Source of the DNA: Candidatus Aenigmatarchaeota archaeon
GTDB lineage: Archaea > Aenigmatarchaeota > Aenigmatarchaeia > Aenigmatarchaeales > JACQIB01
DNA length: 22,696 bases
Assembly (NCBI GenBank): GCA_046760225.1
Contig: JBHIDR010000008.1
Span: 1-22,696 of the forward strand
Reading direction: 5' to 3'
Below, piece by piece: positions 2,250 to 22,487 of this stretch (the first letter of the stretch is position 1; each line of letters opens with the position of its first letter). The notes beneath the pieces are model-generated. The model ran no database searches. It was not told where the DNA came from and saw only the letters and a program-made list of their open reading frames with translations. Both the position numbers and the translations under genes were made by a program.

Positions 2250-2254
2250 TGATT

Positions 2255-3049: not shown

Positions 3050-3058
3050 TTTCAGAAC

Positions 3059-3121
3059 TTTCTCCAGCCCAGGACTCTGTCAGACTTCCTGATTATGCTG
3101 CTGGCTATTGCATCTGTCTTT
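3059..3121 (+). repeat. 63-bp exact direct repeat, copy 1 (duplicate of the 3' end of ORF 5362-5784)
   Basis: Identical to 5369-5431 (TTTCTCCAGCCCAGGACTC...GCATCTGTCTTT). Confidence 0.95.
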
Positions 3122-3166
3122 TGATTGCGCTAAACGTTTTTAAGTTCCAAAGGAGAAAAGATTTGT

Positions 3167-4156
3167 ATGAAAGCAACTGCCGTGGCAAACTCGAATATCG
3201 CCCTAGTGAAATATTGGGGGAAACGTGACGACAAACTAATATTACCGCAGAACGGTAGCATTTCCGTGGCCTTGGACGGATTGAGCACAACCACCACAGT
3301 GGAATTTGGGCCACATGAAAGGGACATCTTTATTTTGGATGGAAGAGAAAGAACAGAAGAAGAGGCCAAGAGGGTTTTTGGACAGATAGACTTGATAAGG
3401 GAACGCGCAGGAATAGGGGAGAAAGCAAAGATTGTATCAGAGAACAACTTTCCAACTGCTGCAGGCTTGGCTTCGTCAGCATCTGGTGCAGCAGCTCTGG
3501 TTGTTGCAGCGGCTGCAGCAGCAGGCATTGGACTCGATAAAAAAGGTCTCTCGGTTTTGGCACGACGCGGCTCAGGCTCTGCATGCAGATCAATTTCAGG
3601 AGGGTTTGTGGAGTGGCTCATGGGGGAGAGGGAGGACGGCTCTGACAGCTACGGAAAACAGATAGCAAAACCAGAATATTGGCCTGACTTCAGAATAATA
3701 ACAACTGTTGTTTCGAAGACTGAAAAGCATGTGAAGAGCAGGGCTGGAATGCGCCAAACTGTGAAGACATGCCCCTTTTACGGATGCTGGCTTGAAAGTA
3801 TAGGGTCAGACCTGAAGGCTGTCAGAAACGGTATAGCGGAGAAGGATATCGCAACCGTGGGTTCTATTGCAGAGATGAACGCACTAAAAATGCATGCGCT
3901 CATGTGGACAACCAAGCCTTCTATAGTTTATTGGATGCCCGAAACACTAAAAATAATTCAAAATATAGTCATCTGGAGGAAAGAAGGTCTTGATTGCTAC
4001 TTCACTATAGATGCGGGGCCACAGGTAAAAATAATATGCCTAAAGAAGGAAGTGAAAGAGATTGAAGCAAAGCTGAAAGAATGTCTAGGGAAAGTAGAAA
4101 TCAGCCAGCATGCTCCGGGCGGTGATGCCAGGCCCATCAACAATCATTTGTTCTGA
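3167..4156 (+). CDS. mvaD: Diphosphomevalonate decarboxylase (GHMP family)
   Basis: NSNIALVKYWGKRD, NNFPTAAGLASSASG, RRGSGSACRS, KHVKSRAGM, FTIDAGPQV motifs. Confidence 0.92.
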   Translation: MKATAVANSNIALVKYWGKRDDKLILPQNGSISVALDGLSTTTTVEFGPHERDIFILDGRERTEEEAKRVFGQIDLIRERAGIGEKAKIVSENNFPTAAGLASSASGAAALVVAAAAAAGIGLDKKGLSVLARRGSGSACRSISGGFVEWLMGEREDGSDSYGKQIAKPEYWPDFRIITTVVSKTEKHVKSRAGMRQTVKTCPFYGCWLESIGSDLKAVRNGIAEKDIATVGSIAEMNALKMHALMWTTKPSIVYWMPETLKIIQNIVIWRKEGLDCYFTIDAGPQVKIICLKKEVKEIEAKLKECLGKVEISQHAPGGDARPINNHLF

Positions 4157-5301
4157 GATTCGTAGCAGACCGGGAATTTGTTTTCCATTCTTATGCCGTC
4201 GCTTTCTATTCTCATGTCTCTAGTTGGCTTTATATCAAACCTCTTCCATGCGTCATGAATGCTTTGGCGTACCTTTTCATCAGTATAGATTGCTATTATA
4301 CTGTCTCCTCCGCCTGCCCCTGGAAGCTTTGATGCTATTGCACCGGCTTCAAGGGCAGCGTCAATCATTTGGCTCAGTTCGGGCGTTTCAATGGGAGCAC
4401 CTGAACGCCTGCCCAGCTCCCTTGTGAGCTTACGGGAAAGCATGAAGGATTTTGCAAATTTATCTATAGCACCTCCACGATTTTCATTGATATCCCTTAA
4501 GGCTCCTATGGCTTTCTTATCCTCCTCATTCAATGTGTGTAGGAGTGCGGCATACTCATCAGGGCTCTTAGCAGCCCATTCCCTGACCTTTCTGACCATA
4601 ATGCGGGTATTGGCAGCACTCCCCGTATATCCAACAATAGTGTGTAGAACGTCTGGAAATGGCAATGGATCTATCCTGTAGTCCCAGTCGCGGTCAATTA
4701 TGCCTTTTATTGTACCTGGCAAAACATCAGGAATAAATTTCTTGCTGAAACGCTCATAGACAGCACCACCATAAACACATGCTGCAATGTCAAATCCAGA
4801 ACCAACCTTTCCCTGCGTGATGTTGTGGCTAAGCTGGGCTAACTTATGTATGGTGTCTTTATTTTCTATGACATCAAACCCATGAAAAGCGAGTATTGCA
4901 GCGATTGTCGCCACTGTGACAGCGGAAGAGCTGCCGAGACCCGACTTAGATTTCCCCCATTGGTACGTGAATGCTGGATTATTGTGAGTTGTCAGCTTAA
5001 AATGCCTAAGTTTATATCCCTTCTCGCTGATGTATCTTAAACTTAATTTCGTTGCAGTATCAGTAAAATCTGTGGCCCTTTCCGAACCAGGTTCATAAAC
5101 AAGTTCTTGGCCCTCAAAGTCTGCTGTTGTACGTATCTTGAAGTCAGGAAACTCGAACTCGAACCTATTCTCGCTTTCCGATACTCGCGCATACACTCTT
5201 TTATTGAGACTAACGACATAACCAACATTGGGCTTCTCAAGAACAGCATAACTTCCTAAAAGCAACATCTTGCCTGGTGCAGATGCTATTACTTCTTCCA
5301 T
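4144..5301 (-). CDS. Phosphomevalonate kinase (GHMP, ERG8/MvaK2-like)
   Basis: SAPGKMLLLGSYAVLE, KSGLGSSSA, QGKVGSGFDIA..VYG, IETPE, PGAGGGDSI motifs; 3' end overlaps mvaD. Confidence 0.88.
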   Translation of the reverse strand: MEEVIASAPGKMLLLGSYAVLEKPNVGYVVSLNKRVYARVSESENRFEFEFPDFKIRTTADFEGQELVYEPGSERATDFTDTATKLSLRYISEKGYKLRHFKLTTHNNPAFTYQWGKSKSGLGSSSAVTVATIAAILAFHGFDVIENKDTIHKLAQLSHNITQGKVGSGFDIAACVYGGAVYERFSKKFIPDVLPGTIKGIIDRDWDYRIDPLPFPDVLHTIVGYTGSAANTRIMVRKVREWAAKSPDEYAALLHTLNEEDKKAIGALRDINENRGGAIDKFAKSFMLSRKLTRELGRRSGAPIETPELSQMIDAALEAGAIASKLPGAGGGDSIIAIYTDEKVRQSIHDAWKRFDIKPTRDMRIESDGIRMENKFPVCYESQNK

Positions 5302-5361
5302 ATTTCTATAGATAGATAACAAGCTTATATATTAATAATATTTCTGTGTCATCATCTGGAA

Positions 5362-10563: not shown

Positions 10564-10842
10564 GGTGTGCTGGACATAGCCCGTCTTCTGTGAAGCGAAT
10601 CAGCGCTGCAATTCGCGCTTCATCTGCATCGCTTTGCAACATTTGACTTAGCTGCCTACCCGCCCCTCTTTCATCATCAGGGCCTACTTGGCATTGCACC
10701 TTGCCGGCTTGTGCCGTGAGAAACCATGAAGCTTCTCTTCGACTGCCTTGACCTCTCGGCCATGCGCCTTGGGCGCGGCAAATGTATCGGTGGACGGAAC
10801 TTCCTCACTGCAGAGCAGCGGTGGTTGCGTGCCCAGCTCACC
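10564..10842 (-). ncRNA. rnpB: RNase P RNA
   Basis: CR-I GAGGAAGUUCCGUCCACC, CR-V ACAGAAGACGGGCUA (P4 pairing), P1 GGUGAGCUGGGCA/UGUCCAGCACACC, P2 GCAAC/GUUGC, P7 UUGCCG/CGGCAA. Confidence 0.93.
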
Positions 10843-10922: not shown

Positions 10923-13622
10923 ATGAAGAATCTTGTGGTTACTGCCTTATTGATAGGTATCTTTTTTGCTGTTTTTTCAATATTTTCCTATGCGTCTGGG
11001 GAATGGATAGATCTTTATCCTTCTTACATCGTCCATGTTAATGATTCTTCCTATGCCTCGTTCGGTTTCAAATATCATAGCTCTGATAATAACAGCGCGC
11101 TCTGTATTCTATGGATTGATAACGAGGCCGTGAATGAGACAAGTGCAACCAAAGACATGCAGTATTATCTTTTTCCGAACAAAACTTATGCAGAAGGCTC
11201 ATATACGTGGTATGTCAGCTGCGAGAATGTCACAACAACCAATTCGTCGACAGGAGATTTTTATGTTGACAAGACAGGACCCTATATAGAAGTATTCCTT
11301 TGGCCCTTTGAATCCCTCTACATGGGACCTAACCAGAATCTTACAATAGAATACCATGACATCTGGACAAACATGCCTTCTCCGAATGTTACGACAAATT
11401 GTTCCGCTGACTACTATTATGGCCCATCATCTAGCCTTATCAATCAGACAGCATACGAGGAAACATATGACTGGTCGTTTTTCAATCCCAACTGCGATGT
11501 TGCAGAAGTATATGCATATGCTATTGATGATGCAGGAAATGACCAGTGGCTCAACTTCACCATTGGCCTTGATAAAGATGGCTCAGAATTCGGAAATTCC
11601 ACATTCGAAAACACAACATACAACAGGGTTGAATATCCGGTCATTGAGGTCGAAATAACAGACAGCAAAAGCGGTATTGACTATGTTGTAGGCTACATAC
11701 CGCATGATTATCTTTCCTTTATGTATGAATTTTATAACCTGAGCACGACAGACGGGCAATACGGCGTTGACGGGAATTACTCATTTGAATGGGACACCTA
11801 CATGTACTATCTGAACGGTACTGACAGCTCCTCTTCCCAGTCAACACCAGACGTCGGTGTTGTTGAGGACGAAACAGGAGACTTTATTGTCTTTGTGTGG
11901 ATAGATGAAAACGGCACCAAATCATCTCAAAACTTTGATCCGACTTTCAGTCCATGGACAGAAGGGTTTCTGATTTTTAATTCGAACGGGGAATTCACTG
12001 ATGTATATTCCATGAACCTTTCCTTTGCCACAGAAGACATTATAAGCAATGCAACAAAAGTGGTATATAGGCCAGTCAATCCTGTTACCTACGACTATAT
12101 TGGCTCATGGAACTCTTATATGGAAATAGTGCTTTTCAATGTTTCAAATTCCTCGGAGAACATCCACAACCCAAAACTCAAAAAGAGACTTTACGGGGAA
12201 TATACGAGGCGGGAAAATGTTGGTGCAGTAATAACAGCATTGGACGTTCTGGAAAACAGGAGAAGTTCAACTTATAACTTCACTGCAGATAACACCTTTA
12301 TCTTCGAAAAATATGGTGCAAATCCATCAGAACATGTGAGTTCAAACAATTCTGCAAATATAATGATCAACATAACCACAACGCGCAATGAGGCATATCC
12401 ATGGTTTAATATTTATGATTCGGACAACAAGTCAATTCTGATTCATCCATTCTTCAACAACACATACGGCAATCAGGACTCCGGATTATACATGTACCTT
12501 TGGAACGCAATCGGATTTGATATTGTGACAGAAGAATGGATAGTCAACAATGTTACAGTCGTGGAGGACAGTGTAGCAGAACTGCCGACAGTCTATATGT
12601 ACACCAACGGTACTGTAGATTGGTATGAGGTGTATGGCTATATCGAAAAGGACGGCACAAACTACAGCGCAAGATTGTTCTTTGGCTCTGATGGAATTTT
12701 GGATGATGCAGAATGCTATAATGGCTGTTCATTCGAAGGAGATGGGAATGAGACGTTCATGCCTGCAAGACATACAATCTACGCCTCATACACGCAGAGT
12801 TATTACATACCGGTAAAGTTCACAATATATGACCCGACATACCCTGTGAATGGCCCATTGAATCCTAAACTAAAATCTAGAAGCGTTCCTGACGGGAACT
12901 ACAGCTTTTATTTTGGTGCATATTGGAACAATTACAACAAAACAATGATACTGAGCACTGACAGCACAGCGCCCGACATAACCAATGTATCAGCGGTAAA
13001 TGTGACCAAAAACAGTGCTGTGATAAGCTGGGAAACGGATGAAGATACGATAGGAACAGTGTACTATGGAACTGACGCAGGTAAACTTAATCTGAATGTC
13101 AGCGAGAGCTCCTACGGAACAACCCACTCATTAACACTTACAGGACTTTCAGCAGGAACAACCTATTATTATAAGATTGTTACATTTGACCTTGGCAACA
13201 ACGGCGCTGAAAGCGAAATATTCAGCTTTGCAACAAAAAGTTCCAGTGGAGCTTCAGGAAGTGGAAGTTCTGGCGGCGGAAGCTCGGGAGGGCTGTCTGT
13301 AACAATGTCATCATCCAAGAACACTGCAAATGAGACAGATACCAATACAGCAAATGAGCCAGTAATAAACCAAGAAAATTCAACTGCTTCGGGTAAGAAC
13401 GGTACTAAGGACGTGGCGAGCAGTGCTTCAGAAACACACCAAGGAGGTATGTTTGCCCACAGCATAAGCAACATAGTGGGAATGTTCACCCAGAATACTA
13501 CAACTGGTGTGCTTGCTGTAATAGTCGGCATAAGCGGCGTGGTAAGCCAGTACCTGTACTTCAAGGGTATAGGGAAGAAAAGGAAGAGCAAAAGAAGAAA
13601 GAAAGCTAGAAAGAGGAATTAG
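10923..13622 (+). CDS. Large secreted, membrane-anchored surface glycoprotein with FN3/Ig-like domains
   Basis: Signal peptide, many N-x-S/T sequons, FN3 motif (AVISWETDE...LTGLSAGTTYYYKI), S/G linker, C-terminal TM plus basic tail; TTTATATA about 23 nt upstream. Confidence 0.85.
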   Translation: MKNLVVTALLIGIFFAVFSIFSYASGEWIDLYPSYIVHVNDSSYASFGFKYHSSDNNSALCILWIDNEAVNETSATKDMQYYLFPNKTYAEGSYTWYVSCENVTTTNSSTGDFYVDKTGPYIEVFLWPFESLYMGPNQNLTIEYHDIWTNMPSPNVTTNCSADYYYGPSSSLINQTAYEETYDWSFFNPNCDVAEVYAYAIDDAGNDQWLNFTIGLDKDGSEFGNSTFENTTYNRVEYPVIEVEITDSKSGIDYVVGYIPHDYLSFMYEFYNLSTTDGQYGVDGNYSFEWDTYMYYLNGTDSSSSQSTPDVGVVEDETGDFIVFVWIDENGTKSSQNFDPTFSPWTEGFLIFNSNGEFTDVYSMNLSFATEDIISNATKVVYRPVNPVTYDYIGSWNSYMEIVLFNVSNSSENIHNPKLKKRLYGEYTRRENVGAVITALDVLENRRSSTYNFTADNTFIFEKYGANPSEHVSSNNSANIMINITTTRNEAYPWFNIYDSDNKSILIHPFFNNTYGNQDSGLYMYLWNAIGFDIVTEEWIVNNVTVVEDSVAELPTVYMYTNGTVDWYEVYGYIEKDGTNYSARLFFGSDGILDDAECYNGCSFEGDGNETFMPARHTIYASYTQSYYIPVKFTIYDPTYPVNGPLNPKLKSRSVPDGNYSFYFGAYWNNYNKTMILSTDSTAPDITNVSAVNVTKNSAVISWETDEDTIGTVYYGTDAGKLNLNVSESSYGTTHSLTLTGLSAGTTYYYKIVTFDLGNNGAESEIFSFATKSSSGASGSGSSGGGSSGGLSVTMSSSKNTANETDTNTANEPVINQENSTASGKNGTKDVASSASETHQGGMFAHSISNIVGMFTQNTTTGVLAVIVGISGVVSQYLYFKGIGKKRKSKRRKKARKRN

Positions 13623-13638
13623 ATTATTTCTTTGTTAA

Positions 13639-13815
13639 TTAAGAGCCCATTGGGAAAAGCGCGTAGTCAAGGTAGAGCAAGCGATTGTTTGTGTCCCTTG
13701 CATATCTGAGATTACTACAATAAAGTGCAAGCTCGTCTTCAAGCTCTTTAATCTTCTTAAGTTTTTGGTCAAGGGTTCTAATATCATGGAGAAGTTTGGT
13801 TTCAACTTTGCACAT
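13639..13815 (-). CDS. Small hypothetical protein, 58 aa (not in the ORF track)
   Basis: My translation MCKVETKLLHDIRTLDQKLKKIKELEDELALYCSNLRYARDTNNRLLYLDYALFPMGS; fills the intergenic gap. Confidence 0.5.
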   Translation of the reverse strand: MCKVETKLLHDIRTLDQKLKKIKELEDELALYCSNLRYARDTNNRLLYLDYALFPMGS

Positions 13816-13861
13816 AACTAAGATTAGAACAGAAAAGGCTTATGCTGATATCTTTCTGTTT

Positions 13862-14155
13862 TCAGACCCTGTTCCAGATTGCTGCGAAAATCCAGCCTGT
13901 GATGTAGCCGCATATGAAGGCACCTATCAGGCCAATCACAGCTGCCGTTGCATCGAATGCCAGAACCGTGTACGGGTTAGTGAGCATGTGTACTCCTGAT
14001 ATCCATGCTATAAAAGCGTCTCCGATGCCTGCTGCCACGAACAGAACCCATCCTGCGTGCCATATTGCGAAAATCGCACCAAGGCTGAGTCCTGCCCTGT
14101 GCTCTTCAATCATCAGTCTTGCGGGTTTTCTTGCAGCTCTTCTTCTTTTTGCCAT
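13862..14155 (-). CDS. Small membrane protein
   Basis: 97 aa, hydrophobic segments with H..W and GY..GW.FA.IWN pattern. Confidence 0.7.
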   Translation of the reverse strand: MAKRRRAARKPARLMIEEHRAGLSLGAIFAIWHAGWVLFVAAGIGDAFIAWISGVHMLTNPYTVLAFDATAAVIGLIGAFICGYITGWIFAAIWNRV

Positions 14156-14194: not shown

Positions 14195-14262
14195 TTCAGA
14201 TGCTGGGCGAATGTGCCTTCATTGCCCCGCATTTGGCTCGGCACATACTCTGGTAGCATCAA
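14195..14262 (-). ncRNA. K-turn / C/D-like hairpin in the 23S 3' trailer
   Basis: UUGAUGCU...AUGUGC CGA GCC-loop-GGC AAU GAA GGCACAU...AGCAUCUGA. Confidence 0.5.
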
Positions 14263-14294
14263 GCCAGTGGAGGAGAAATTTTAAGGGGGTCTAA
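14263..14294 (-). other. 23S pre-rRNA processing stem, 3' arm (BHB)
   Basis: UUAGACCC-CCUU-AAA-AUUUCUCCUCCACUGGC pairs with 22026-22057. Confidence 0.92.
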
Positions 14295-14509
14295 ACAAAA
14301 AGGCCGTTGGGGGCAGTGAGCTGAAATAGTCGCCGAAGCTTCTATCTTACACCCCTGCTCCATTAAACAGGTCGTCTCGCCTGTGGCCATTGCCTATTTT
14401 TCCCGGACGCTTCAGCCTTAGATGCCTTCAGGCTTTAACGCTTATGGCGTAGCTACCCGGCGTTACCATATGATAACCGGTGAACCAGAGGCCACGAGGG
14501 GGCGTTCCT

Positions 14510-15137
14510 TTTACGTGTGCCTACAAAAGATTAAATTTTACCTTGTTAGAGGTACCAACATGTTTCAAAAACTTTTCCACATTCCTCCATGTAAACACTA
14601 TCAATCTGAAAATATTGTTAGTGCCATTTTTATAGGGCCCATAGATTTTAGCTCTTATTTCCAACCTTTGTAAAATATATTGAGTGTATTCCAGAATTTT
14701 CTTGTCTTTTTGATACATTATTACTCTTATATCAGATTTCTTGTTTTTATTTTTGTATATAGAGCCTTCCGCATCAAAGAACCCCCTCAGGAAACTTATC
14801 TCATCACTTAATGTGTCAAATTTTACTTCATTGAGAGGTTTCATTAAAATGTTCAACACATCACTGTCTAGATTATTCTTGTGAATGTACACATAGATTA
14901 TATAAATTCCGTCAGGAGTTCTTAGAATCTTTGGGTTCTTTCCAGATACGTCCTTCAATATTGGAGCGATTGTATTTTCCAACCATTCCTTGTTCTTCTG
15001 CCTAACTACTATTCTTATCCTTTTGTTTAAATCGTATACGTGGCCATCCGCCAAAGATCCTTTCAAATAAGCCAGGGCTCCTTCCATGCACATTTATTTT
15101 GTTGGTTCCTTTAAATATTTTCTTAAGTAAGGCACAT
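14510..15137 (-). mobile_element. BHB intron 13 (after Ec 2661, sarcin-ricin loop), endonuclease-encoding
   Basis: UACG-AA^A-UGUGCCU...AGGCACA-CGUA-AA^A; splicing restores AGUACGAAAGGAAC. Confidence 0.9.
14521..15093 (-). CDS. LAGLIDADG homing endonuclease (two motifs)
   Basis: LAYLKGSLADGH and FLRGFFDAEGS. Confidence 0.9.
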   Translation of the reverse strand: MCMEGALAYLKGSLADGHVYDLNKRIRIVVRQKNKEWLENTIAPILKDVSGKNPKILRTPDGIYIIYVYIHKNNLDSDVLNILMKPLNEVKFDTLSDEISFLRGFFDAEGSIYKNKNKKSDIRVIMYQKDKKILEYTQYILQRLEIRAKIYGPYKNGTNNIFRLIVFTWRNVEKFLKHVGTSNKVKFNLL

Positions 15138-15296
15138 TTCGTACTTGCCCCTTCTTCGGGTCAGGCAACAACACCCTCAGTAGATATAAACCGTACTGTC
15201 TTTGTCGTTTGGTGTAGGACACCCAAAAAGCATAAGCGAGACAATTCTCTTAGGCTCATAAGCTACTCCTTGCGGGCATATCTAGCCTATGGGGCG

Positions 15297-15365
15297 GTTT
15301 CAGTCATTGCCTGAACTGCCTCGATATAAATTTATCATACCCTGGTATACCAACCTCATTGAAAT
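15297..15365 (-). ncRNA. Possible second intron-encoded C/D sRNA
   Basis: AAUGAGG-guide UUGGUAUACCAGGGU-AUGA...guide GCAGUUCAGGCA-AUGA; weak terminal stem UUUCA/UGAAA; degenerate C'. Confidence 0.4.
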
Positions 15366-15439
15366 GGCTACCAAACTCTGAAAGTTTCGGTCACAGCCAG
15401 AGCTAATGCTCTCTCAGTTGGATCATCTGAGGTATGACA

Positions 15440-15512
15440 GCAGGAATCGGATGTGACCTCATCTGTCATCTGCATAATGCATCATATTATCGACACTAAC
15501 CTCATACCCTGC
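15440..15512 (-). ncRNA. Intron-encoded box C/D sRNA
   Basis: Stem GCAGG/CCUGC, C UAUGAGG, D' AUGA, UGCA/UGCA hairpin, C' GAUGACA, D CCGA; D guide UGAGGUCACAU has 11/11 complementarity to 23S at 21905-21915. Confidence 0.75.
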
Positions 15513-15611
15513 TCGAAGACCACTATTGTTTGCGTCCCACTACCAAATCACGACGTACTGAACCCAGCTAATGTCCCCCTTTGATCAGTGAACACCTGCA
15601 CCCTTGGCTGC

Positions 15612-16414
15612 TTGCAGTTCAAGATAGGAAACCGGTATCAGGCAAGCCTCTTCAAAAATGCCATAATTTCTGGTTTGGTTTTGAATTTTTTCAATTCCAA
15701 TTGTTTTACTTCGTAACTTCTTACTGCGATATCAAGCACTTTATTCTTCTCGTATCCTTCCCAGTTCTTACTATCACCTGTTACCCTTACGCTTGGAATG
15801 AATCTTATTGTTCTCGCAAATTTTTTGATATCTTTTTTCTTTATTAATAAAACTTCATCATTTTCAGGTCTTATAATGGGCTCAAAACCGAGTTCTCTTA
15901 ACAGTGCATATACTTGTCTTCTTATTGTCGGATGCTTACAAGCAAATTTAACCCACTTTTTTATTTCCCATAATCCATATCTCTTATTCCAAACAACCCA
16001 TAAGCTAATTGAACCGTCGCAAGAAAACATTACTTGCAACATTCTAATCTTATGGATTTTAGGAAGTTTGAAAACAAACTTCGGTATTCTGGAATTTGGG
16101 AATTTCCCATTTTCCAGCTGTTTTGTTCTAAATGTGGGTATTAGCGTTAGCAAATATTCTCCTATTCTCTTGCTGGTAACCTTTGTTTTAATAACATCTC
16201 TGTATCTACTATCTCTGAATTGAGTAAATTTTACGTCACCAAAGATGTCCCTCATAATTTTCTTAAAAAGGCTGTGTAATTCTTTGGATTTACCTGTAAA
16301 TTCTATAACCCAGCCTCTACCTTTAGAGCTAACGCTTCCGTCTGTTAAAAGCAACCCTACTAACAAGGCTAAGTGACCCGATACCGGCGTGCTACGCACA
16401 TCCCCATCCTGAAT
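15612..16414 (-). mobile_element. BHB intron 11 (after Ec 2534), endonuclease-encoding
   Basis: GCAG-UA^A-UUCAGGAUGGGGA...UUCCUAUCUUGAA-CUGC-AA^G; second stem CCGGUAUCGGG/CCUGAUACCGG encloses the ORF. Confidence 0.9.
15638..16399 (-). CDS. LAGLIDADG homing endonuclease (probable GTG start inside the intron)
   Basis: LALLVGLLLTDGSV and MLQVMFSCDGSI motifs; G-rich SD-like sequence before GTG 16399. Confidence 0.82.
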   Translation of the reverse strand: MRSTPVSGHLALLVGLLLTDGSVSSKGRGWVIEFTGKSKELHSLFKKIMRDIFGDVKFTQFRDSRYRDVIKTKVTSKRIGEYLLTLIPTFRTKQLENGKFPNSRIPKFVFKLPKIHKIRMLQVMFSCDGSISLWVVWNKRYGLWEIKKWVKFACKHPTIRRQVYALLRELGFEPIIRPENDEVLLIKKKDIKKFARTIRFIPSVRVTGDSKNWEGYEKNKVLDIAVRSYEVKQLELKKFKTKPEIMAFLKRLA

Positions 16415-16440
16415 TACTGCACAGCCAGGAGGGGGGAAGC

Positions 16441-16474
16441 TTCTGCCTACAGTAAGTTTGCACCTAGCTGTAGT
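16441..16474 (-). other. BHB intron 10, 34 nt (after Ec 2508)
   Basis: CUGU-CG^A-CUACAG...CUGUAG-GCAG-AA^G. Confidence 0.88.
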
Positions 16475-16499
16475 CGACAGCGAGGTAGCAACGCGCGGG

Positions 16500-16745
16500 T
16501 TCTCGTTCCGAGAAGGGCTATAATTTCTCCCCAATTGGTTCCTCAAAAATAAATCTGACTTCTTGCTTTTATTTTGAAACGATTTTTTAAGTGACATAAA
16601 ATCACTGACCGAATATTTGTCGAAACTTCTTTATCTAAATTTCGTGTCTGGATAATATCAATGACCGAAATTGAGAATATGGAAGTTGAGACAGAGGTCA
16701 AGTGATTTTATGGAACCTATTGAAGAGAAAACCCCTCACCGAAAT
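16500..16745 (-). other. BHB intron 9, 246 nt (after Ec 2483); probable endonuclease-deleted remnant
   Basis: AUCG-AC^A-UUUCG...CGGAA-CGAG-AA^C (one mismatch in the central helix); splicing restores AUCGACCCCGC. Confidence 0.82.
16622..16690 (-). ncRNA. Conserved intron RNA motif, copy in intron 9
   Basis: UC-AACUUCC-AUAUUCUC-[stem]-UAGAUAA-AGAAGUU-UC. Confidence 0.75.
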
Positions 16746-16751
16746 GTCGAT

Positions 16752-16791
16752 TTGCTCATTGCTATCTTTCTGTTGAAAGATTTGAGCAATT
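16752..16791 (-). other. BHB intron 8, 40 nt (after Ec 2477)
   Basis: GCUC-CU^A-AUUGCU...AGCAAU-GAGC-AA^A. Confidence 0.88.
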
Positions 16792-16964
16792 AGGAGCTCT
16801 CGCCCGCCACGACTCTGTTATCCCCGGGGTAGCTTTTCTGAAGTCACCGGCATCCATCAAGGACAAACTGGTGTATCGTTAGCCCACGCTTTCGCGGCTG
16901 GATCCTTTACTGTGCAGAATCCAGTCAGGCCTCCTTTTGCGCTTACACTCTACTCCTGATTTCT

Positions 16965-16995
16965 TTCTGGAAGCAATAGCTATGACTAATGCTAT
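16965..16995 (-). other. BHB intron 7, 31 nt (after Ec 2306)
   Basis: CUGG-UC^A-UAGCA...UGCUU-CCAG-AA^A. Confidence 0.85.
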
Positions 16996-17014
16996 GACCA
17001 GGATGAGGAAACCT

Positions 17015-17053
17015 ATGCCCGAATATCTCCCAGACTAATCTGATAGATACTCT
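17015..17053 (-). other. BHB intron 6, 39 nt (after Ec 2287)
   Basis: GCCC-AA^A-GAGUAUCU...AGAUAUUC-GGGC-AU^A. Confidence 0.9.
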
Positions 17054-17280
17054 TTGGGCGCCCTTGATCTCCTGTCAAGGGCGTACCGCCCCAGCCAAGC
17101 TGTCCACCAACCGGTGTCCCCCCGAGTCGAGGGTTAGCCATACAGTCACAAAACGGCAGTGTTACATTGGCGCCTATCCAACGCCCGAAAACGTTGGCTT
17201 AGCAGCTCCTGCCTACACTATGGAAACGTAACCATACAGCAACGACAGGCTACAGCAGAGCTTTCCGTTGAGGTAAATAG

Positions 17281-17988
17281 TCAAAGAAGCGACAACCGCT
17301 GTTCAGTTGTTAGTTTAGGCGGGCAATTGCCCGTCTTTTCAAAAAGATAAATTTTTGACAAATGTTTTGGATTGAAAAAACCAATTTTATACATCCAATC
17401 GTTCAACATCTTCTTTCCATACATCCTTATCCTGAATTCTTTGAAACCTCTTCTTGAGGTCTTCTCAAGAGCAGGTTTAAAGCCCAGCAGTTTAAGCTGA
17501 GTCTGCACAAAATCTGCCAGTACTTCATTATTTGTGAACATCTCTATTCTAGGTTCGCAGTGTAGACCTTTTCTATTCTTTTTGAATGAAACAGAAAAAT
17601 CTGCATCTGCAAGCCCTCGTATGAAGTGTGGTATAAGACTTCCTTGAATCCATATCGGTACGTGCTTCAATTTCAATTTATTACCAACAGGAATTCCAAT
17701 GTTAACTTTCTTTTGTACGACTTCTTTGGAATTCAGAACAGCTATTAATGTACGTTCTCCCTTCTTCAAATAAACCCTTGGTCTTTTCCTATAAAGTCTT
17801 TCTATGATGTCTGGAACAATATTGGAATAAAATTCCTTATCGTTCTCTACATCACCAGAAAATTCCACACGGAAAATCCCATGATTTTTATTTATGTAAA
17901 GACAACCATCACCCAAATGTAAACCAGTTTCATATGCAAATAATTCCTTCTTTTTAAGTTTTTTGATATGAAAATTTTTAATTTTCAT
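17281..17988 (-). CDS. LAGLIDADG homing endonuclease
   Basis: FAYETGLHLGDGC and FIRGLADADFS. Confidence 0.9.
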   Translation of the reverse strand: MKIKNFHIKKLKKKELFAYETGLHLGDGCLYINKNHGIFRVEFSGDVENDKEFYSNIVPDIIERLYRKRPRVYLKKGERTLIAVLNSKEVVQKKVNIGIPVGNKLKLKHVPIWIQGSLIPHFIRGLADADFSVSFKKNRKGLHCEPRIEMFTNNEVLADFVQTQLKLLGFKPALEKTSRRGFKEFRIRMYGKKMLNDWMYKIGFFNPKHLSKIYLFEKTGNCPPKLTTEQRLSLL

Positions 17989-18002
17989 GAGGACATTTAG
18001 GT

Positions 18003-18056
18003 GAAGCTGACTTATCTAACTTTCTATGAAATAGAAAGGGAGAATATGTCAGCTGA
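18003..18056 (-). ncRNA. Conserved intron RNA motif, copy in intron 5
   Basis: UC-AGCUGAC-AUAUUCUC-[stem]-UAGAUAA-GUCAGCU-UC. Confidence 0.75.
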
Positions 18057-18219
18057 ACTCGCCTCTTCTCATTCTACTTAACCCCATCCACGGGGTCTTC
18101 TCTTCCCTCTGAGGGTCTGTGGCCTATTCACCACAAAAGCAGGTTCGCCGGGGTCCGACCCGGGACAGTGGGAAAGTCGTTAATCCATTCATGCGGGCCG
18201 ACAATTAATCGGCAAGGGA

Positions 18220-18251
18220 TTTCGTTGTAAGGTCTGGGAAGACCTTGACAT
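18220..18251 (-). other. BHB intron 4, 32 nt (after Ec 1938)
   Basis: GCGU-AA^A-UGU(C)AAGGUC...GACCUUACA-ACGA-AA^U (one central mismatch). Confidence 0.82.
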
Positions 18252-18539
18252 TTACGCTACCTTAAGACGGTCAGAGTTACCGCCGCCGTTTACGGGGGCT
18301 TGGCCCGGTTGAAACCGGGTTTAACACACCCGCACTGGGCAGGACTCACCAACTATACTTAGGATTTCTCCCTAGCAGTCAGCTACGTTTTTGTTAAACA
18401 GTCGCCTTCCCCTGGTTACTGAGACCTACCTGATCTCCAGATAGGCAAGGGTTCTACCAAAGATACCCCTCTAATTTGCCGAGTTCCCTGGATCGGTGTA
18501 TCCCGTCACGCCGTCGCCTTTTCAGCAAGAGTCACCTGT

Positions 18540-18569
18540 ATCCTGAGATATTAGTGAAGCTAATATCTT
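18540..18569 (-). other. BHB intron 3, 30 nt (after Ec 1615)
   Basis: ACUG-AC^A-AGAUAUUAG...CUAAUAUCU-CAGG-AU^A; splicing restores AACUGACACAGGUG. Confidence 0.85.
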
Positions 18570-19033
18570 GTCAGTTCTTGATACGGACACAGCCAATCCG
18601 ACCGGTTTCATTTTCATGGTCTCCTGGAGTCACCCGAACTCCCGTATACACAGAAGCTATTAGCGCCTTCACCCGGTTCTCTCTTTGACAGAACTTCCCG
18701 GGTTTCAGCGGTTAACTTACGTCGGACTATCCTGAAGCGTCTGAAACCGGACTTGCGTTGCCGCGTGTATGGCCGTGGTGCAGGAATATTAACCTGCTTC
18801 CCTTTCCCGAGCTTCAGTTAAGGGCTCAGTTAGGATCGACTAACTCCCGGCTGAACGACATTGCCGGGAAAATCTTGCTCTTCTGGCGGTCGGGGTTCCA
18901 ACCCGACTTTGCTGCTACTACCAGCAGGATTCTCATTTCCGGGCGGTCCACACCTGCTTACGCAGATGCTTCTGTCCGCGCGGAACGCCTTCCTACGCTA
19001 TGACTTTCGTCATCTGGGGTCTCGGTAGCAAGC

Positions 19034-20053
19034 TTACTCCCGTCCATTTTCACCGCGCCGCCCCTCGACGGGTCCGCTGTTTCGTGGGCGATGAATCAAC
19101 TTTAATAAAACTTCCAAATTCCTTTTCTTTGGGTGTGCAGACCCAATTAAAAAACAAAATTTTTCTATGTCATCTTTATTGCGAATACTTAATGTCCATC
19201 TTGGATATGTGCTGCCTTTGTCAGGCATCGTTACAGATAAGTTCGACTTAATCTTCAAGTCCAATAAAATTTTTTTCATATCTTGCAAAGGCGGACATGC
19301 TGTTCGGCTATCCCAGCTCTGATAAAATCTTATTGCCATATTCTGCTTCATGGCCTTCTTCAAAGACATATCAGCTAGGTTGCCACATCCGCCTTCTGCG
19401 TCAAAAAACCCTTTGATGTAAGCTTTTTTCAGTCTTTCTGGAGCCTTCAATACGATTGATGGGGTTCGCCATTTCGTTTGCTTACCAAATGGATGATTGC
19501 AAACGACATGTAAAAATGTAGCCATAATTCTTGATTCGACTCGTAAACCCCATACATCACCCCTAAAAAGCGTGTATTGTGGCTTTTGATTAAAGTTCTC
19601 AAATACGGGTTTGATTTCTGTTTCCAGCCAAGATTTGTGCTTGGCAGAAACCATCACACTGTATCTGTGCTTTCCTGACGATGATATGAAGTGGCTTACA
19701 CTCCCATCTCGTAATGCTCCTAGAAAGTATGCCAGCCTCTCATCAAAAGTTTTGGGCAGAATGACATGTTCGGGGCTTCCAAGCAGCCCGATAAACTCGA
19801 ACTGCCTGAAAGCTTCGTCTAGTAGCTTTGCATTCGAAGTCCTAGCGACATCTTTCACAAAGGCTATCGTCGGCAAAGACGACCATGCCCGTACTGAAAG
19901 ATAGCGTTCAAGACTTTTTACGGAATATCCAAACTTTTTTGCAAAGCCTCTGTATGTCATGCCATTATCATCCCAATAAGCTCTGACAAGCTTCTTTACT
20001 CCACCCAGACGAAAATCGCCTGGTAGTTTATTGAGATAATTTGATAGATGCAC
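19034..20053 (-). CDS. HTH + LAGLIDADG homing endonuclease; stop codon lies in the downstream exon
   Basis: HTH-like GMTYRGFAKKFGYSVKSLERY, LAYFLGALRDGSV, YIKGFFDAEGG. Confidence 0.87.
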   Translation of the reverse strand: MHLSNYLNKLPGDFRLGGVKKLVRAYWDDNGMTYRGFAKKFGYSVKSLERYLSVRAWSSLPTIAFVKDVARTSNAKLLDEAFRQFEFIGLLGSPEHVILPKTFDERLAYFLGALRDGSVSHFISSSGKHRYSVMVSAKHKSWLETEIKPVFENFNQKPQYTLFRGDVWGLRVESRIMATFLHVVCNHPFGKQTKWRTPSIVLKAPERLKKAYIKGFFDAEGGCGNLADMSLKKAMKQNMAIRFYQSWDSRTACPPLQDMKKILLDLKIKSNLSVTMPDKGSTYPRWTLSIRNKDDIEKFCFLIGSAHPKKRNLEVLLKLIHRPRNSGPVEGRRGENGRE

Positions 20054-20099
20054 ATACCCTTAATGGGTCCGCTAGTATTTATAGTCGACTCCTTCGCCT
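19081..20099 (-). mobile_element. BHB intron 2 (after Ec 1095), endonuclease-encoding
   Basis: CGCG-UA^A-GGCGA...UCGCC-CACG-AA^A (one central mismatch; boundaries +/-1); splicing restores GCGUAACAGC. Confidence 0.85.
20076..20083 (-). promoter_or_regulatory. Putative intron-internal TATA box for the endonuclease
   Basis: TATAAATA about 22 nt upstream of the GTG at 20053. Confidence 0.5.
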
Positions 20100-20661
20100 T
20101 ACGCGTTGATTATCGGATGGCTGCTTCTGAGCCTACCGCCCCGCTGTTTTTGGAACGGCACCAGCTTTGTGACTTAGCTTGCATTTGGGGACCTTAACCC
20201 CAGGCTAGCTTGTTCGCTTTTCGGATACCTAGCTTACCCAGGTACCCTCACTCCCACCTTCTATGGCGCTTGCAGATTATTAGTTTGACAGGAAAGACAG
20301 GGATTTCTCCCCACAACTTCCCAATCAGTGCTTTACCCCACAAGCTACCTCTGGTGAGGCTGTGCTGAGACACATTTCGGAAGGAACCAGCTATTAGGAC
20401 TCTCGATTGGCTTTTCACCCCTATGCCCAGGTCACCCGATCACTTTGAGATAGAACCGGTAACAGGCCTCCACGGAGCTTTCGCCCCGCTTCACCTTGCC
20501 CAGGCATAGATCGAGTCCTTTCGGGTCTTATCCCCGTGACTCCTCGCGCTTTCACACGACGCCCCTGGCCCGAAGGCTGCGGGCTTTTTGCTTTCGCTAT
20601 GGCTACGCGCCGAAGCGCTTAACCTTGCCACGAGAATAAACTCCCTGCCACGTGATTCTCG

Positions 20662-21291
20662 TTAAAGAAGCGCTCTCAGTTTCTTCGCCTTTATAGGATG
20701 TTCAAATCCTATTTTTTCAACAAAAATAGAAGCTTGTTTTTTTCCATTAATATGTATCATTGAAAAATCATTATATTCATAGAGGTTCGATTTTATTCCT
20801 TCTAAAGAAAGAACCTCAAAAACGTCTTTTGCTAACCCATGATTATGGACTTTCATTTGAATTCTCAAATATCCGTTCTTATGGTGAGAATCCTTCATTT
20901 CGATAACCGAACCTTCGGCATCAAAAAGTCCACATAAAAGAGAACATCTTAATTTTGAGTCCTCTTTGACGGTCTTCGGTACTCTTACTATCCTGGACTT
21001 ATTACCCGAAGGTATTCCAAGATGCTTAAATATTGTCCATATTTTCTTGGAATGCACATAAGCTACAAAGGAGTTATTGTAGCTATCAAAGTATATTTTT
21101 GGCATCCTCTTGAAGACCTTTGAAAATTTTCTAGCAAATATTTCTTGTATAAATTCTTTATTTTCTTCTACTGCCCTCACAAGATATTTACTGGAAAGAT
21201 TTCCGTCTCCAATTATGAATCCCATCAGATAATTCAAATCCTCATTATTTTTCAGAATTTCAGCTTCTTTATTGAAAATTTGAATTTTCAT
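20662..21291 (-). CDS. LAGLIDADG homing endonuclease
   Basis: LNYLMGFIIGDGN and LLCGLFDAEGS. Confidence 0.92.
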   Translation of the reverse strand: MKIQIFNKEAEILKNNEDLNYLMGFIIGDGNLSSKYLVRAVEENKEFIQEIFARKFSKVFKRMPKIYFDSYNNSFVAYVHSKKIWTIFKHLGIPSGNKSRIVRVPKTVKEDSKLRCSLLCGLFDAEGSVIEMKDSHHKNGYLRIQMKVHNHGLAKDVFEVLSLEGIKSNLYEYNDFSMIHINGKKQASIFVEKIGFEHPIKAKKLRALL

Positions 21292-21305
21292 GGGTCTTCT
21301 TAGGC

Positions 21306-21372
21306 GAAGCTTCCTTATCTACTTTTCGCGTCTCCCTACGTCCAAGACCGAAAAGGAGAATATGGAAACTGA
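21306..21372 (-). ncRNA. Conserved intron RNA motif, copy in intron 1
   Basis: UC-AGUUUCC-AUAUUCUC-[stem]-UAGAUAA-GGAAGCU-UC. Confidence 0.75.
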
Positions 21373-22025
21373 GTCATCACACTTGCTCTAATTTCGAAAC
21401 GGACACCATGACACTGTAAGCCTTTCCTCCTACACACCCATTTCTGGATTTTCGTTCGGAAAGGCACCTTTCGCGCCATGGCTGACTATAACTGACTGGC
21501 TTCAAGCTCTTTTCATCTTCTATGAAGAATGCTTTTCAGCTTTCTGTCACCATACTAGTGCGCTATCGGACTCCAGACATATTTAGGGTTGGGTGTTGAT
21601 GCCACCCACCTTCCTACAGCATATCCGAGCTGCAGTACTCTTTTCCCGCAATCAGCTTTCTGTCCTACCCCTACAGGGCTATCACCTTCTCGGGCACGCC
21701 TTTCCAGGCGACTTCGAGTCGGACAGCGAAGCTGTACACGGGTTCCACATATCCACTGCATTTCTGCAGCGATTCGGTTTGCCCTGTTCCGCCTTCACTC
21801 GCCGTTACTAACGGAATCGAATTTCTTTCTCTTCCTCCGCTTAATAAGATGCTTCAATCCAGCGGGTTCCCTTTCTCCGAAGAGAATGACAGCCGAAGCT
21901 GCCGTGAGGTCACATTAGGTAATTCCTGGTTCTAGGGCTGCGTGCGCCTCGCCAGGACTTATCGCAGCTTGCTACGACCTTCTTCAGTGCTGGAGCCAAG
22001 CTATCCACCAGGCAGTGTGTGGTGC

Positions 22026-22057
22026 TTAGACCCTATCCTCATTTCTCCTCCACTGGC
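22026..22057 (-). other. 23S pre-rRNA processing stem, 5' arm (BHB)
   Basis: GCCAGUGGAGGAGAAAU-GAGG-AUA-GGGUCUAA; with 14263-14294 forms 17 bp / 3-nt bulge / 4 bp / 3-nt bulge / 8 bp. Confidence 0.92.
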
Positions 22058-22080: not shown

Positions 22081-22150
22081 GAAGCTCACGTGACCGTCCT
22101 GATTTCATTGCCCGAAGGCTCAAAAGGTGTTCCACGCAGTCCATCGCTTC
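22081..22150 (-). ncRNA. Box C/D double-guide sRNA (predicted Um2552 and Cm1920)
   Basis: Stem GAAGC/GCUUC, D' UUGA, GCC-UUCG-GGC, C' AAUGAAA, D GUGA; guides GAACACCU and AGGACGGUCA are antisense to 23S. Confidence 0.8.
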
Positions 22151-22198
22151 CTTTTCTACCCTTCCACCACAACCGGCATCTGTTGCGATGTGCACTTT

Positions 22199-22234
22199 GC
22201 TGCTCACGAGACAGTTCCCTTAGTTCATTGCAGC
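22199..22234 (-). ncRNA. Single-guide box C/D sRNA (predicted Cm2601)
   Basis: GCUGC-AAUGAAC-UAAGGGAACUGUCUC-GUGA-GCAGC; ACUGUCUC is antisense to spliced GAGACAGU. Confidence 0.7.
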
Positions 22235-22240
22235 TTTTTC

Positions 22241-22302
22241 GCCATCATATACCCCTGGGCCTTTCATTGCTCTTGCTCAGGCATTGGCTTTATTCATCTG
22301 GC
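22241..22302 (-). ncRNA. Box C/D sRNA, target not identified in the window
   Basis: GCCA-GAUGAAU-AAAGCCAAUGC-CUGA-GCAAGAGC-AAUGAAA-GGCCCAGGGGUAU-AUGA-UGGC. Confidence 0.7.
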
Positions 22303-22487
22303 ACGCCATGTAGGACATGACCATGATTGAATGGATTTTGATAAACCCATTTGAGGTGGTTTGTTTGGTCTTTCGACCAGAAGGAGCGTCATCTCGTCGC
22401 CGATTCAGCTAGTTTTCCATTGAGTCTTCAGTTGCTGTACATACAAAGCCACCATTTTCCTGTAAGTATAATACTGTTTTCTGAAGG

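Follow-up and report, generated by a model that had tools for sequence, protein, structure and literature searches.

Box C/D guide RNAs and their targets are, as a rule, encoded by separate genes. The window analyzed here (the whole stretch of 22,696 nucleotides) raises the question of whether a ribosomal RNA precursor can carry guides of this type for its own modification: an earlier note, made from the sequence alone, had read the segment 22081-22302 as a row of C/D-type guides in the leader of the pre-23S rRNA, aimed at the same transcript. Whether this reading is sound depends on where the 23S gene begins, on how the units are built, on which nucleotides their antisense stretches address, and on whether any of this recurs in relatives.

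In an Rfam scan of the whole window, RNase P and LSU rRNA were the only matches. The first position of the archaeal LSU model falls on 22032 (minus strand), and the segment 22081-22302 is therefore 5' leader. The single LSU match of that scan (16724-22032) was rejected as the extent of the gene, because introns cause it to misplace the 3' end: the 23S gene, on the minus strand, is interrupted by at least 7 insertions, its true 3' part is 14540-14302 (minus strand), and its 3' end lies near 14288. No tRNA or 16S gene was found upstream of the 23S gene within the window, and a TATA-like box precedes the leader, with a motif and flanks that recur in the nearest relative found (locus L020, 86% identity over 642 nt of exon 1). 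Between this box and the leader strand of a processing stem lie three K-turn units, A, B and C. The earlier note had placed such a stem 3' of the units, and the corresponding leader-trailer duplex is indeed present. No second TATA-like box could be read between the units and the 23S gene, which share one strand; likewise in five relatives, guide units and 23S target occupy one strand with a TATA-like box upstream. The features of the leader, in the order of transcription, are:

22495-22488, minus strand: TATA-like box, by direct reading the putative promoter of a stand-alone 23S transcription unit

22303-22240, minus strand: unit A, double C/D-like; 5-bp closing stem 22303-22299 with 22244-22240, C-type box 22297-22291, D' box CUGA 22280-22277, C' box 22267-22261, 12-nt D spacer 22260-22249, D box AUGA 22248-22245

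22234-22199, minus strand: unit B, single K-turn half-unit; stem 22234-22230 with 22203-22199, bulge and GA 22229-22225, 14-nt spacer 22221-22208, D box GUGA 22207-22204

22183-22154, minus strand: leader block between units B and C, near-invariant between the window and L020

22151-22080, minus strand: unit C, double C/D-like; closing stem 22151-22146 with 22085-22080, C-like box 22145-22139 (GG for GA), D' guide 22138-22124, D' box UUGA 22123-22120, hairpin 22119-22110, C' box 22108-22102, 12-nt D guide 22101-22090, D box GUGA 22089-22086

22057-22041, minus strand: leader strand of the pre-23S processing stem, pairing with the trailer at 14279-14263 (duplex -54 kcal/mol)

For the conserved leader blocks (22409-22385, 22183-22154 and others) no convincing partner was found in the pre-23S.

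Units A and B each close with a 5-bp stem, and their K-turns have a bulge of 3 nt, with tandem GA on either strand. Units A and C have the two-guide layout with an internal C'/D' motif, which in A comprises a 2-bp stem and a 4-nt loop, and in C a well-formed K-turn (3-bp stem, UUCG loop); unit B is a half-unit that lacks this motif. Unit C has a 6-bp closing stem, and its terminal K-turn, absent from the matches of a K-turn pattern search, is possible only with a 4-nt bulge, the C-type box reading GG where GA is expected. The earlier description of three units, each with a terminal stem and K-turn geometry, applies fully to A and B and to the stem of C, and needs correction at the terminal box of C. 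The boxes are far from canonical, with none of the five C/C' boxes of the window equal to RUGAUGA and one of the five D-type boxes equal to CUGA; the K-turn core (UGA, and GA) is kept despite this, and the deviating letters pair with each other. The spacers measure 12 nt in A and in C, 10 nt on the D' side of A, 14 nt on the D' side of C, and 14 nt in B; a conserved spacer of 10-12 nt has been described as required for methylation (PMC3608112). No Rfam family matches the units at its gathering score, either in the window leader or in the relatives. The sole Rfam match in the window leader is unit C itself (22084-22146, a C/D-box snoRNA family, E=2.4, below threshold), and the sub-threshold matches over the units belong almost only to C/D-box families (1 of 1 in the window, 7 of 11 in locus L064, and 5 of 5 in locus L035, where they include archaeal sR24 and sR55).

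Two further C/D-like elements, at 14782-14836 within an intron and at 14225-14196 in the trailer, are without exonic target.

Three of the five guides in the window, searched against the 23S rRNA, have an rRNA nucleotide at position 5 (U2552, C1920 and C2601). The sites concerned are:

18273-18264, minus strand: helix 69 site addressed by the D guide of unit C, with 18270 (C1920) as the N+5 nucleotide

15597-15590, minus strand: A-loop (helix 92) site addressed by the D' guide of unit C, with 15594 (U2552) as the N+5 nucleotide

15547-15201, minus strand: bulge-helix-bulge intron without an ORF, by direct reading, which interrupts the site addressed by unit B; its central helix is formed by 15554-15551 and 15207-15204, its bulges are 15550-15548 and 15203-15201

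15200-15193, minus strand: 3'-exon part of the unit B target, joined by splicing to 15549-15548 to give E. coli 2597-2604, with C2601 at 15198

Both pairings that the earlier note had proposed for unit C were reproduced. Positions 2-11 of its D guide, the 12 nt before GUGA, form 10 bp with 18273-18264 (one G-U), position 5 facing 18270, while positions 2-9 of the D' guide, the 12 nt before UUGA, form 8 bp with 15597-15590 (no G-U), position 5 facing 15594. An alignment with a copy of the E. coli 23S rRNA identifies these nucleotides as C1920 and U2552, the very residues that had been named under the N+5 rule. One supporting argument has to be given up: G at 2551 had been regarded as unusual in this genome, and a pattern permitting G or C at this position found G in all 10 non-haloarchaeal loci in which the A loop was matched, so that this commonplace residue is no evidence for guide-target covariation.

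Unit B addresses a third region (E. coli 2597-2606). Positions 1-8 of its guide are fully complementary to E. coli 2597-2604 of the spliced 23S rRNA, placing C2601 at N+5, and a mismatch follows at the lineage-specific A2605; it pairs better with an intronic look-alike at 15322-15313 (10 bp, one G-U) than with the spliced rRNA (8 bp). The intron that splits this target is common to the window and L020, and no intron is found at that place in loci L019, L035 and L064. Unit B is missing from L020, and guides of like kind occur in L019 and L035. As regards unit A, no convincing exonic 23S target was found in the window for its D and D' guides. Its homologue in L020 (10302-10228, minus strand) has a D guide that forms 9 bp with C2064 at N+5 and a D' guide with C2601 at N+5; CUGA, tried as the D' box of this homologue, gave a shifted register and was dropped in favour of AGGA, because AGGA is the box that the internal K-turn showed.

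The relatives come from a genome scan keyed on an exact 23S motif containing GGTGGATAGCT, and 72 loci were retrieved; because the scan required GGTGGATAGCT exactly, most Aenigmatarchaeota and other DPANN genomes lie outside the sample. In 22 non-haloarchaeal loci we searched the whole length of both strands for antisense 8-mers followed by a D-type box, and leader guides appeared in six loci only: the window, L020, L003, L064, L019 and L035. In these six Aenigmatarchaeota-type genomes the units lie directly upstream of the 23S gene (within ~300 nt), and since the loci are related, their recurrence amounts to conservation, not to independent origin. A BLAST search of the window leader against the 72 loci gave no match at E 1e-5, the homology with L020 being visible only by reading and alignment. 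Units A and C both have counterparts in L020, where the boxes are better formed, and the helix 69 and A-loop guides of L020 are in the same register as those of the window. The leaders of L003, L064, L019 and L035 cannot be aligned with that of the window; each of these loci has a unit 40-190 nt upstream of the 23S gene whose D guide places position 5 on U2552 or C2601, the units of L064 being located in a 16S-tRNA-23S spacer.

U2552 occupies N+5 in all five loci that have an A-loop guide, C1920 in both loci with a guide to it, and C2601 in three of four cases, the exception being the second unit of L019, where A2600 takes this place. Altogether 12 of the 17 guides examined in the six loci, including the L020 D' guide with the AGGA box, address four functional-core sites, and the remaining 5 are orphans. 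Guides and targets also change together. The A loop of L019 reads UGCCC, not UGUUC, and its guide has GG at positions 7-8 as against AA in the other four; guide position 12 forms a G-C pair in L003 and an A-U pair in L064; and the C2601 guide of L020 has U opposite the lineage-specific A2605. The earlier note had counted conservation in relatives among the tests of its reading, and the related loci do preserve the units, their register and the covariation of guide and target.

The architecture is conserved as well. Exact consensus boxes occur in relatives (AUGAUGA with CUGA in L003, GUGAUGA in L020), while the usual C/C' forms are AAUGAA or AUGAAGA and the D-type boxes read NUGA, AAGA, AGGA, UAGA or CGGA. 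The first two letters of the D box pair with letters 5-6 of box C and change together with them; all 9 units have a Watson-Crick outer pair, which is of three types. Among the nine aligned units, 54-76 nt in size, the C'-to-D spacer is 12 nt long in seven and 13 nt in two. In the same nine units, which were picked partly for having stems, 93.3% of the 45 terminal-stem cells are paired, with changes on both sides in 6 of 6 pairs; none of 500 shuffles matched this pairing, and slid controls reached 29-57%.

We consider it likely, from the sequences compared, that the 5' leader of a stand-alone 23S transcript encodes box C/D-type guide RNAs that are co-transcribed with their target. The core of the earlier reading, that the pre-23S leader holds C/D-type guides aimed at its own transcript, is thereby supported, in that the relatives conserve both register and covariation; the window alone is suggestive in this respect, and the relatives are decisive.

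Among the other explanations, an improbable one is that the units are L7Ae-binding spacer K-turns whose antisense stretches hold open, or bring together, helix 69, the A loop and the A2602 region, so that the leader would serve as a tethered chaperone or timer without any methylation. Such a role would be in keeping with the off-consensus boxes and the weakened terminal box of unit C, with the fact that this unit links two sites ~630 nt apart (E. coli numbering), with the target-less K-turn or C/D-like motifs reported in ligated pre-16S spacers ("16S-D RNA"), and with the chaperone role that has been proposed for dual guides (PMC4644070). Pure pairing, however, needs neither a target nucleotide at position 5, yet the three sites occupy it in 5/5, 2/2 and 3/4 instances, nor the fixed 12-nt distance from C' to D seen in 7 of 9 units. 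Chaperone and methylation-guide functions do not exclude each other.

It is quite improbable, in our view, that the guides are real in the relatives and partly decayed relics in this genome. Several details do have the look of decay: the C box of unit C has GG where L020 has GA, the D guide of unit A has a 1-nt deletion relative to L020 and has lost the match to the C2064 region, the D' guide of unit A is without target, and unit B is mismatched at A2605. Against this, the paired guide parts of unit C are identical in the window and L020 while the surrounding boxes and loops differ, closing stems are kept in both K-turns of unit C and in the K-turn of unit B, and the leader as a whole is 79% identical to that of L020, i.e. 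about as conserved as the exons (79-98%).

A third explanation is chance, by which brief stretches of a 450-nt leader that happen to be complementary to a gene of 7.7 kb would have been taken for guides post hoc. It draws some support from unremarkable duplex lengths (equalled or surpassed by shuffled guides in 56 of 1000 cases for helix 69 and in 349 of 1000 for the A loop), from a loose C/D scan of all leaders (159 matches, processing stems included) and from loose K-turn geometry, which is frequent in shuffled sequence. It is nevertheless most improbable, because it is contradicted by site-specific shuffles (about 1 in 1000 per guide), by the spacer fixed at 12 nt, by the covariation of the terminal stems and by compensatory guide-target changes, and because six genomes with leaders that otherwise defy alignment keep the same nucleotides at N+5. 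In the site-specific trials a shuffled guide placed position 5 on either named nucleotide with at least 8 bp in 16-24 of 20000 trials per guide, as compared with two of the five real guides. The loose K-turn pattern (4-bp stem) is mildly enriched, with 4 occurrences in the window and 1.33 on average after shuffling, a count of 4 being attained in 19 of 300 shuffles; the loose C/D scan was set aside as evidence, being too noisy.

If the leader does encode guides for its own transcript, L7Ae would bind each K-turn as the leader is transcribed, and would be followed by Nop5 and fibrillarin. The 12-14 nt spacers would pair with 23S rRNA whose promoter they share, and fibrillarin would methylate the ribose opposite guide position 5, namely at U2552 (A loop), C1920 (helix 69) and C2601 (next to A2602), with C2064 as an additional target in L020. 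The units may act while tethered to the nascent rRNA, or they may be trimmed to sRNPs of ~60-70 nt once the processing stem has been cut. What we infer here is that the units bind proteins, are excised and direct methylation. More speculatively, the pre-23S could be a self-guiding precursor, in which C/D RNPs assembled on the leader, and tethered until the stem is cut, methylate helix 69, the A loop and the A2602 region and help to fold them in cis, and the leader cluster may constitute a minimal, stoichiometrically coupled set of essential guides in small-genome archaea, replacing enzymes such as RlmE; we regard this extended proposal as possible and somewhat doubtful. No gene for fibrillarin, Nop5 or an RlmE-type enzyme was found among the ORFs of the window and 63 flanking ORFs of five loci. 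One RsmB/F-type protein among these 63 ORFs gives a secondary FtsJ match.

Work on archaeal ribosome biogenesis has yet to settle how a cell keeps its supply of guides in step with the rRNA that it makes, and whether guides act co-transcriptionally. Guides borne by the leader would tie their own dose one-to-one to 23S synthesis and place them beside the nascent target, and the leader units would thereby offer a natural system for distinguishing cis from trans action and for studying the proposed chaperone role of dual guides. The cluster also hints at which ribose methylations a lineage with a reduced genome has retained (U2552, C1920, C2601 and C2064), and the boxes indicate that consensus can be left far behind while the K-turn pairs persist, which is relevant to sRNA gene finders.

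As far as the literature searched reaches, guide sRNAs proper have not been described from the leader of a pre-23S rRNA, and the units are best appreciated by comparison with systems that share some of their properties. RlmE/FtsJ makes Um2552 and TlyA makes Cm1920; these protein-only enzymes modify the same nucleotides, in the same functional regions, and recognize their sites without RNA. Comparable in location is 16S-D RNA, reportedly described by Tang et al. in 2002 (Nucleic Acids Res 30:921) as a C/D-like, L7Ae-binding RNA derived from ligated archaeal pre-16S spacers. It shares with the leader units, which lie upstream of a processing-stem strand, K-turn or C/D-like motifs in a pre-rRNA spacer and a suspected role in rRNA biogenesis, and would share release tied to cleavage of the processing stem. 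Unlike the leader units, it flanks the 16S gene and has no identified antisense target, whereas here several units stand in a row, flank the 23S gene and possess conserved, covarying N+5 complementarity to named nucleotides. The leader units thus fall outside the 16S-D type, having clear antisense targets and flanking 23S, not 16S; the name "16S-D RNA" is cited in PMC7038931.

Archaeal C/D sRNAs are known to be processed out of longer transcripts and to need no promoter of their own (PMC7994747), and the leader units would resemble the guides in tRNA-Trp and tRNA-Met introns, dicistronic tRNA-sRNA and polycistronic sRNA transcripts in maturing without one. With the tRNA-intron guides, for which action in cis has been reported (PMC7994747; PMC3491384), they would also share the presence of guide and target in one primary transcript. 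They differ in that the host is the 23S precursor and not a tRNA, that they occupy a 5' leader and not an intron, and that their targets are 1.9-2.6 kb away in the mature sequence and, before splicing, as much as 6.9 kb away.

A further likeness is to the archaeal box C/D sRNAs themselves, which have the same succession of closing stem, K-turn, spacer, internal K-turn or K-loop, 12-nt spacer and D-type box, with the antisense stretch ending 1-2 nt before the D or D' box and the target at its fifth position. Size (54-76 nt) and targets in helices 68-71 and 90-93 agree too, these helices being methylation hotspots (PMC7994747) and U2552 having been predicted as a target of C/D guides in 5 of the 7 archaea examined (PMC4644070). 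The leader units depart from these sRNAs in their boxes, which stray from RUGAUGA and CUGA, in the single-guide half-unit B, and in the location of their genes within the leader (in L064, the 16S-tRNA-23S spacer) of the very rRNA that they target.

The leader of the window's 23S gene is best read as carrying box C/D-type guides that are produced within the pre-23S transcript, a reading based on architecture, pairing register, conservation and covariation. In the window, Rfam assigned an archaeal LSU rRNA to the minus strand, position 1 of the model falling at 22032, and an archaeal RNase P RNA to 10565-10841; a tRNA search found no tRNA in the window, and no 16S gene lies there upstream of the 23S. 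Based on the LSU frame, the lack of an upstream 16S gene and the presence of a TATA-like box, we assign 22081-22302 to the 5' leader of a 23S gene that forms a transcription unit by itself. The single Rfam LSU match stops at 16724, and the real 3' part of the 23S is found at 14540-14302; the gene spans about 7.7 kb, because five LAGLIDADG ORFs and further ORF-less insertions reside inside it. On the minus strand of the leader, GCAAUGAA occurs three times and NUGAGC four times, arranged as three units (A, B and C).

Features of the leader and of the 23S gene in the window
22495-22488, minus: TATA-like box, read from sequence
22303-22240, minus: unit A, closing stem of 5 bp, internal K-turn with a 2-bp stem
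22234-22199, minus: unit B, closing stem of 5 bp, no internal motif (half-unit)
22151-22080, minus: unit C, closing stem of 6 bp, internal K-turn with a 3-bp stem and UUCG loop
22057-22041, minus: leader strand of the processing stem, pairing with trailer 14279-14263
20662-21291: LAGLIDADG ORF in 23S
19034-20053: LAGLIDADG ORF in 23S
18251-18225, minus: 27-nt insert directly 3' of helix 69
17281-17988: LAGLIDADG ORF in 23S
15638-16597: LAGLIDADG ORF in 23S, 319 aa
15547-15201, minus: ORF-less bulge-helix-bulge intron, 347 nt
15554-15551 with 15207-15204, minus: bulge-helix-bulge helix
15550-15548 and 15203-15201, minus: bulge-helix-bulge bulges
14521-15093: LAGLIDADG ORF in 23S

Units A and B show K-turn geometry: a 3-nt bulge and GA come after the closing stem on one strand, and a GA on the opposite strand abuts the stem. 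The earlier note ascribed K-turn geometry to each of the three units; after the closing stem of unit C, GG stands in place of the expected GA. The pairings proposed for unit C proved exact: positions 2-11 of its D guide (the spacer preceding box D) pair with 18273-18264 (10 bp, one G-U), and positions 2-9 of its D' guide with 15597-15590 (8 bp). Their fifth positions face 18270 and 15594, which alignment to a copy of the E. coli 23S identifies as C1920 and U2552, respectively. The G at 2551, which had been called unusual, is present in all ten loci that yielded an A loop and carries no information. By themselves, the duplex lengths in the window are unimpressive, as shuffled guides equalled them in 56 (helix 69), 349 (A loop) and 74 (unit B) of 1000 trials. 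Shuffling brought U2552 or C1920 opposite the fifth position, in a duplex of at least 8 bp, in only 16-24 of 20000 trials, compared with two of the five real window guides; this pair of sites was named post hoc by the earlier note, so we do not base the argument on the window. The sole Rfam match in the leader (22084-22146, minus strand; E=2.4, sub-threshold) is to the Tetrahymena C/D snoRNA model TtnuCD16, which has in common with unit C an A-loop antisense core, a D'-type box and a GCCUUCGGGC hairpin; this likeness could be due to convergence on a universal target, or to chance.

A genome scan with a 23S 5'-end pattern, limited to genomes with the exact motif, returned 72 loci, mostly from haloarchaea that chance to share it. 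The nearest relative, L020, is a metagenome-assembled Candidatus Aenigmatarchaeota with 86% identity across 642 nt of exon 1; L003, L019 and L035 bear the same label, and L064 ("archaeon") is closest to L003 among these in 23S similarity grouping. The kingdom to which the phylum is assigned is Nanobdellati. Conservation in relatives was borne out, with units upstream of the 23S in all five of these loci. The L020 leader is 79% identical to that of the window and has homologues of units A and C, with unit B absent; its unit C has boxes nearer consensus, a 6-bp closing stem and an internal K-turn whose 3-bp stem differs from that of the window by one compensatory pair change, and the paired parts of both guides are identical to those of the window, while boxes and loops differ. 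The leaders of L003, L064, L019 and L035 could not be aligned to that of the window; even so, 40-190 nt ahead of the 23S, each contains one complete unit or two, that of L064 being located between a spacer tRNA and the 23S. A search for an antisense 8-mer with a D-type box in 22 non-haloarchaeal loci (whole, both strands) confined the leader guides to the six loci, and three haloarchaeal spacers hold the A-loop guide's core of 7 nt with no in-register D-type box after it.

Two further leader blocks (22385-22409 and 22154-22183, minus strand) are identical or nearly so in the window and L020, more conserved than the C/D boxes; we found for them no K-turn reading and no pairing partner across the pre-23S. 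Both loci share the gene order NUDIX, Yip1, DUF7847, TIM-barrel, NUDIX, and the neighbours at 730-5322 of the window include Trm1, two NUDIX proteins, an amino-acid-kinase-family protein, a diphosphomevalonate-decarboxylase-like protein and a GHMP kinase (mevalonate-pathway type genes). L019 encodes an aTrm56-type tRNA ribose methyltransferase (13396-13914, minus strand) a few kb from its 23S, so the lineage retains one or more protein-only 2'-O-methyltransferases.

Among the 17 guides examined in the six loci, 12 are directed to four functional-core nucleotides and five are orphans.

Nucleotides facing the fifth guide position before the D or D' box (N+5), E. coli 23S numbering
U2552 (A loop): window, L020, L003, L064, L019; 5 of 5; 8-10 bp
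C1920 (helix 69): window, L020; 2 of 2; 10 bp (1-2 G-U)
C2601: window unit B, L020 unit A, L035; 3 of 4; 8-10 bp (0-2 G-U)
C2064: L020 unit A; 1 locus; 9 bp

The remaining guide of the C2601 type, in the second unit of L019, has a 13-nt spacer and A2600 at N+5. Guides and targets covary: L019 has UGCCC in its A loop against UGUUC in the others with this guide, and the L019 guide has GG against AA in the other four. Guide position 12 forms a G-C pair in L003 and A-U in L064. At position 2605, close to A2602 of the peptidyl-transferase centre, the window, L020 and L003 have A, and L019, L035 and L064 have U; the L020 guide has the matching U, and those of L019 and L035 carry A. The A loops of L019 (UGCCC, idx 2950-2965) and L035 (UGUCC, idx 2775-2790) depart from the near-universal UGUUC, and these two genomes therefore lack U2554 and/or U2555.

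The spacer of unit B pairs over 10 bp (one G-U) with 15322-15313, which comparison with relatives places within the ORF-less intron, a textbook bulge-helix-bulge intron common to the window and L020. The spliced exon junction restores E. coli 2597-2606, with which unit B positions 1-8 pair perfectly, the fifth facing C2601 (window 15198), a target that the earlier note did not list. Since this best mature target arises only upon intron removal, the guide must persist to or past splicing. The intronic near copy of 2597-2606 at 15313-15322 gives unit B 10 bp against 8 bp with the spliced exon, and the L020 intron has a comparable look-alike. At least seven insertions interrupt the window 23S (14288-22032, minus strand), five with LAGLIDADG ORFs, and several lie within ~50 nt of guide targets; smaller length differences from L020 occur at 18568-18543 and 17051-16965. 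Two stretches inside ORF 15638-16597 (16502-16475 and 16440-16417, minus strand) match contiguous L020 23S at 96%; these may represent micro-exons, or the ORF as called could extend across exon sequence.

We aligned nine double units, picked partly for having a stem. Box C retains the core UGA in eight of them (the exception is window unit C), box C' AUGA is invariant, and the C'-to-D spacer is 12 nt in seven and 13 nt in two. Pairing in the terminal stem reaches 93.3% over 45 cells, a value inflated by the choice of units; 6/6 of its pairs change on both sides, which 0 of 500 shuffles matched, and slid registers gave 29-57%. Letters 1-2 of the D-type box pair with letters 5-6 of the C-type box, the outer pair being Watson-Crick in 9/9 units with three pair types, and hence the boxes drift from RUGAUGA/CUGA with the K-turn kept. 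Short-range Rfam scans gave sub-threshold matches only, nearly all to C/D-box families (7 of 11 in L064; 5 of 5 in L035, including archaeal sR24 and sR55). Outside the leader, a C/D-like element at 14782-14836 (minus strand; SNORD38, E=0.045, sub-threshold) lies within the LAGLIDADG ORF of the last intron, and its guides match intron sequence only; the 3' trailer at 14196-14225 (minus strand), past the processing stem, holds GCAAUGAAG ... CUGA with a 17-nt spacer, with no closing stem and no exonic target.

The units would bind L7Ae, Nop5 and fibrillarin, be released and direct methylation; they may act in cis or in trans. Archaeal C/D sRNAs mature out of longer transcripts at any place that allows a K-turn RNP to assemble, and methylation hotspots are helices 68-71 and 90-93 (PMC7994747), U2552 is a predicted C/D target in five of seven archaea (PMC4644070), and activity requires a 10-12 nt spacer (PMC3608112); the C/D-guide reading fits all four. 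A tethered chaperone or timer that does not methylate is compatible with the off-consensus boxes and with the dual-guide chaperone idea of PMC4644070, yet it leaves the fixed fifth-position register and the 12-nt spacer unexplained. Partial decay in the window genome is plausible for unit A and perhaps affects the terminal box of unit C. The window counterpart of the C2064 guide, in unit A, has a 1-nt deletion and no longer matches. Chance complementarity is excluded by the site-specific shuffles, the spacer alignment, the register and covariation of pairing, and the terminal-stem covariation.

A full-text literature search, covering main texts and few subscription papers, returned no report of a pre-23S leader that holds true guides for named rRNA targets, and an earlier account is possible. 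The closest known systems are ordinary archaeal C/D sRNAs, guides located in tRNA introns or co-transcribed with tRNAs, and the "16S-D RNA". The last, described by Tang and colleagues in 2002 as cited in PMC7038931, is reported to be a C/D-like, L7Ae-binding RNA from pre-16S spacers.
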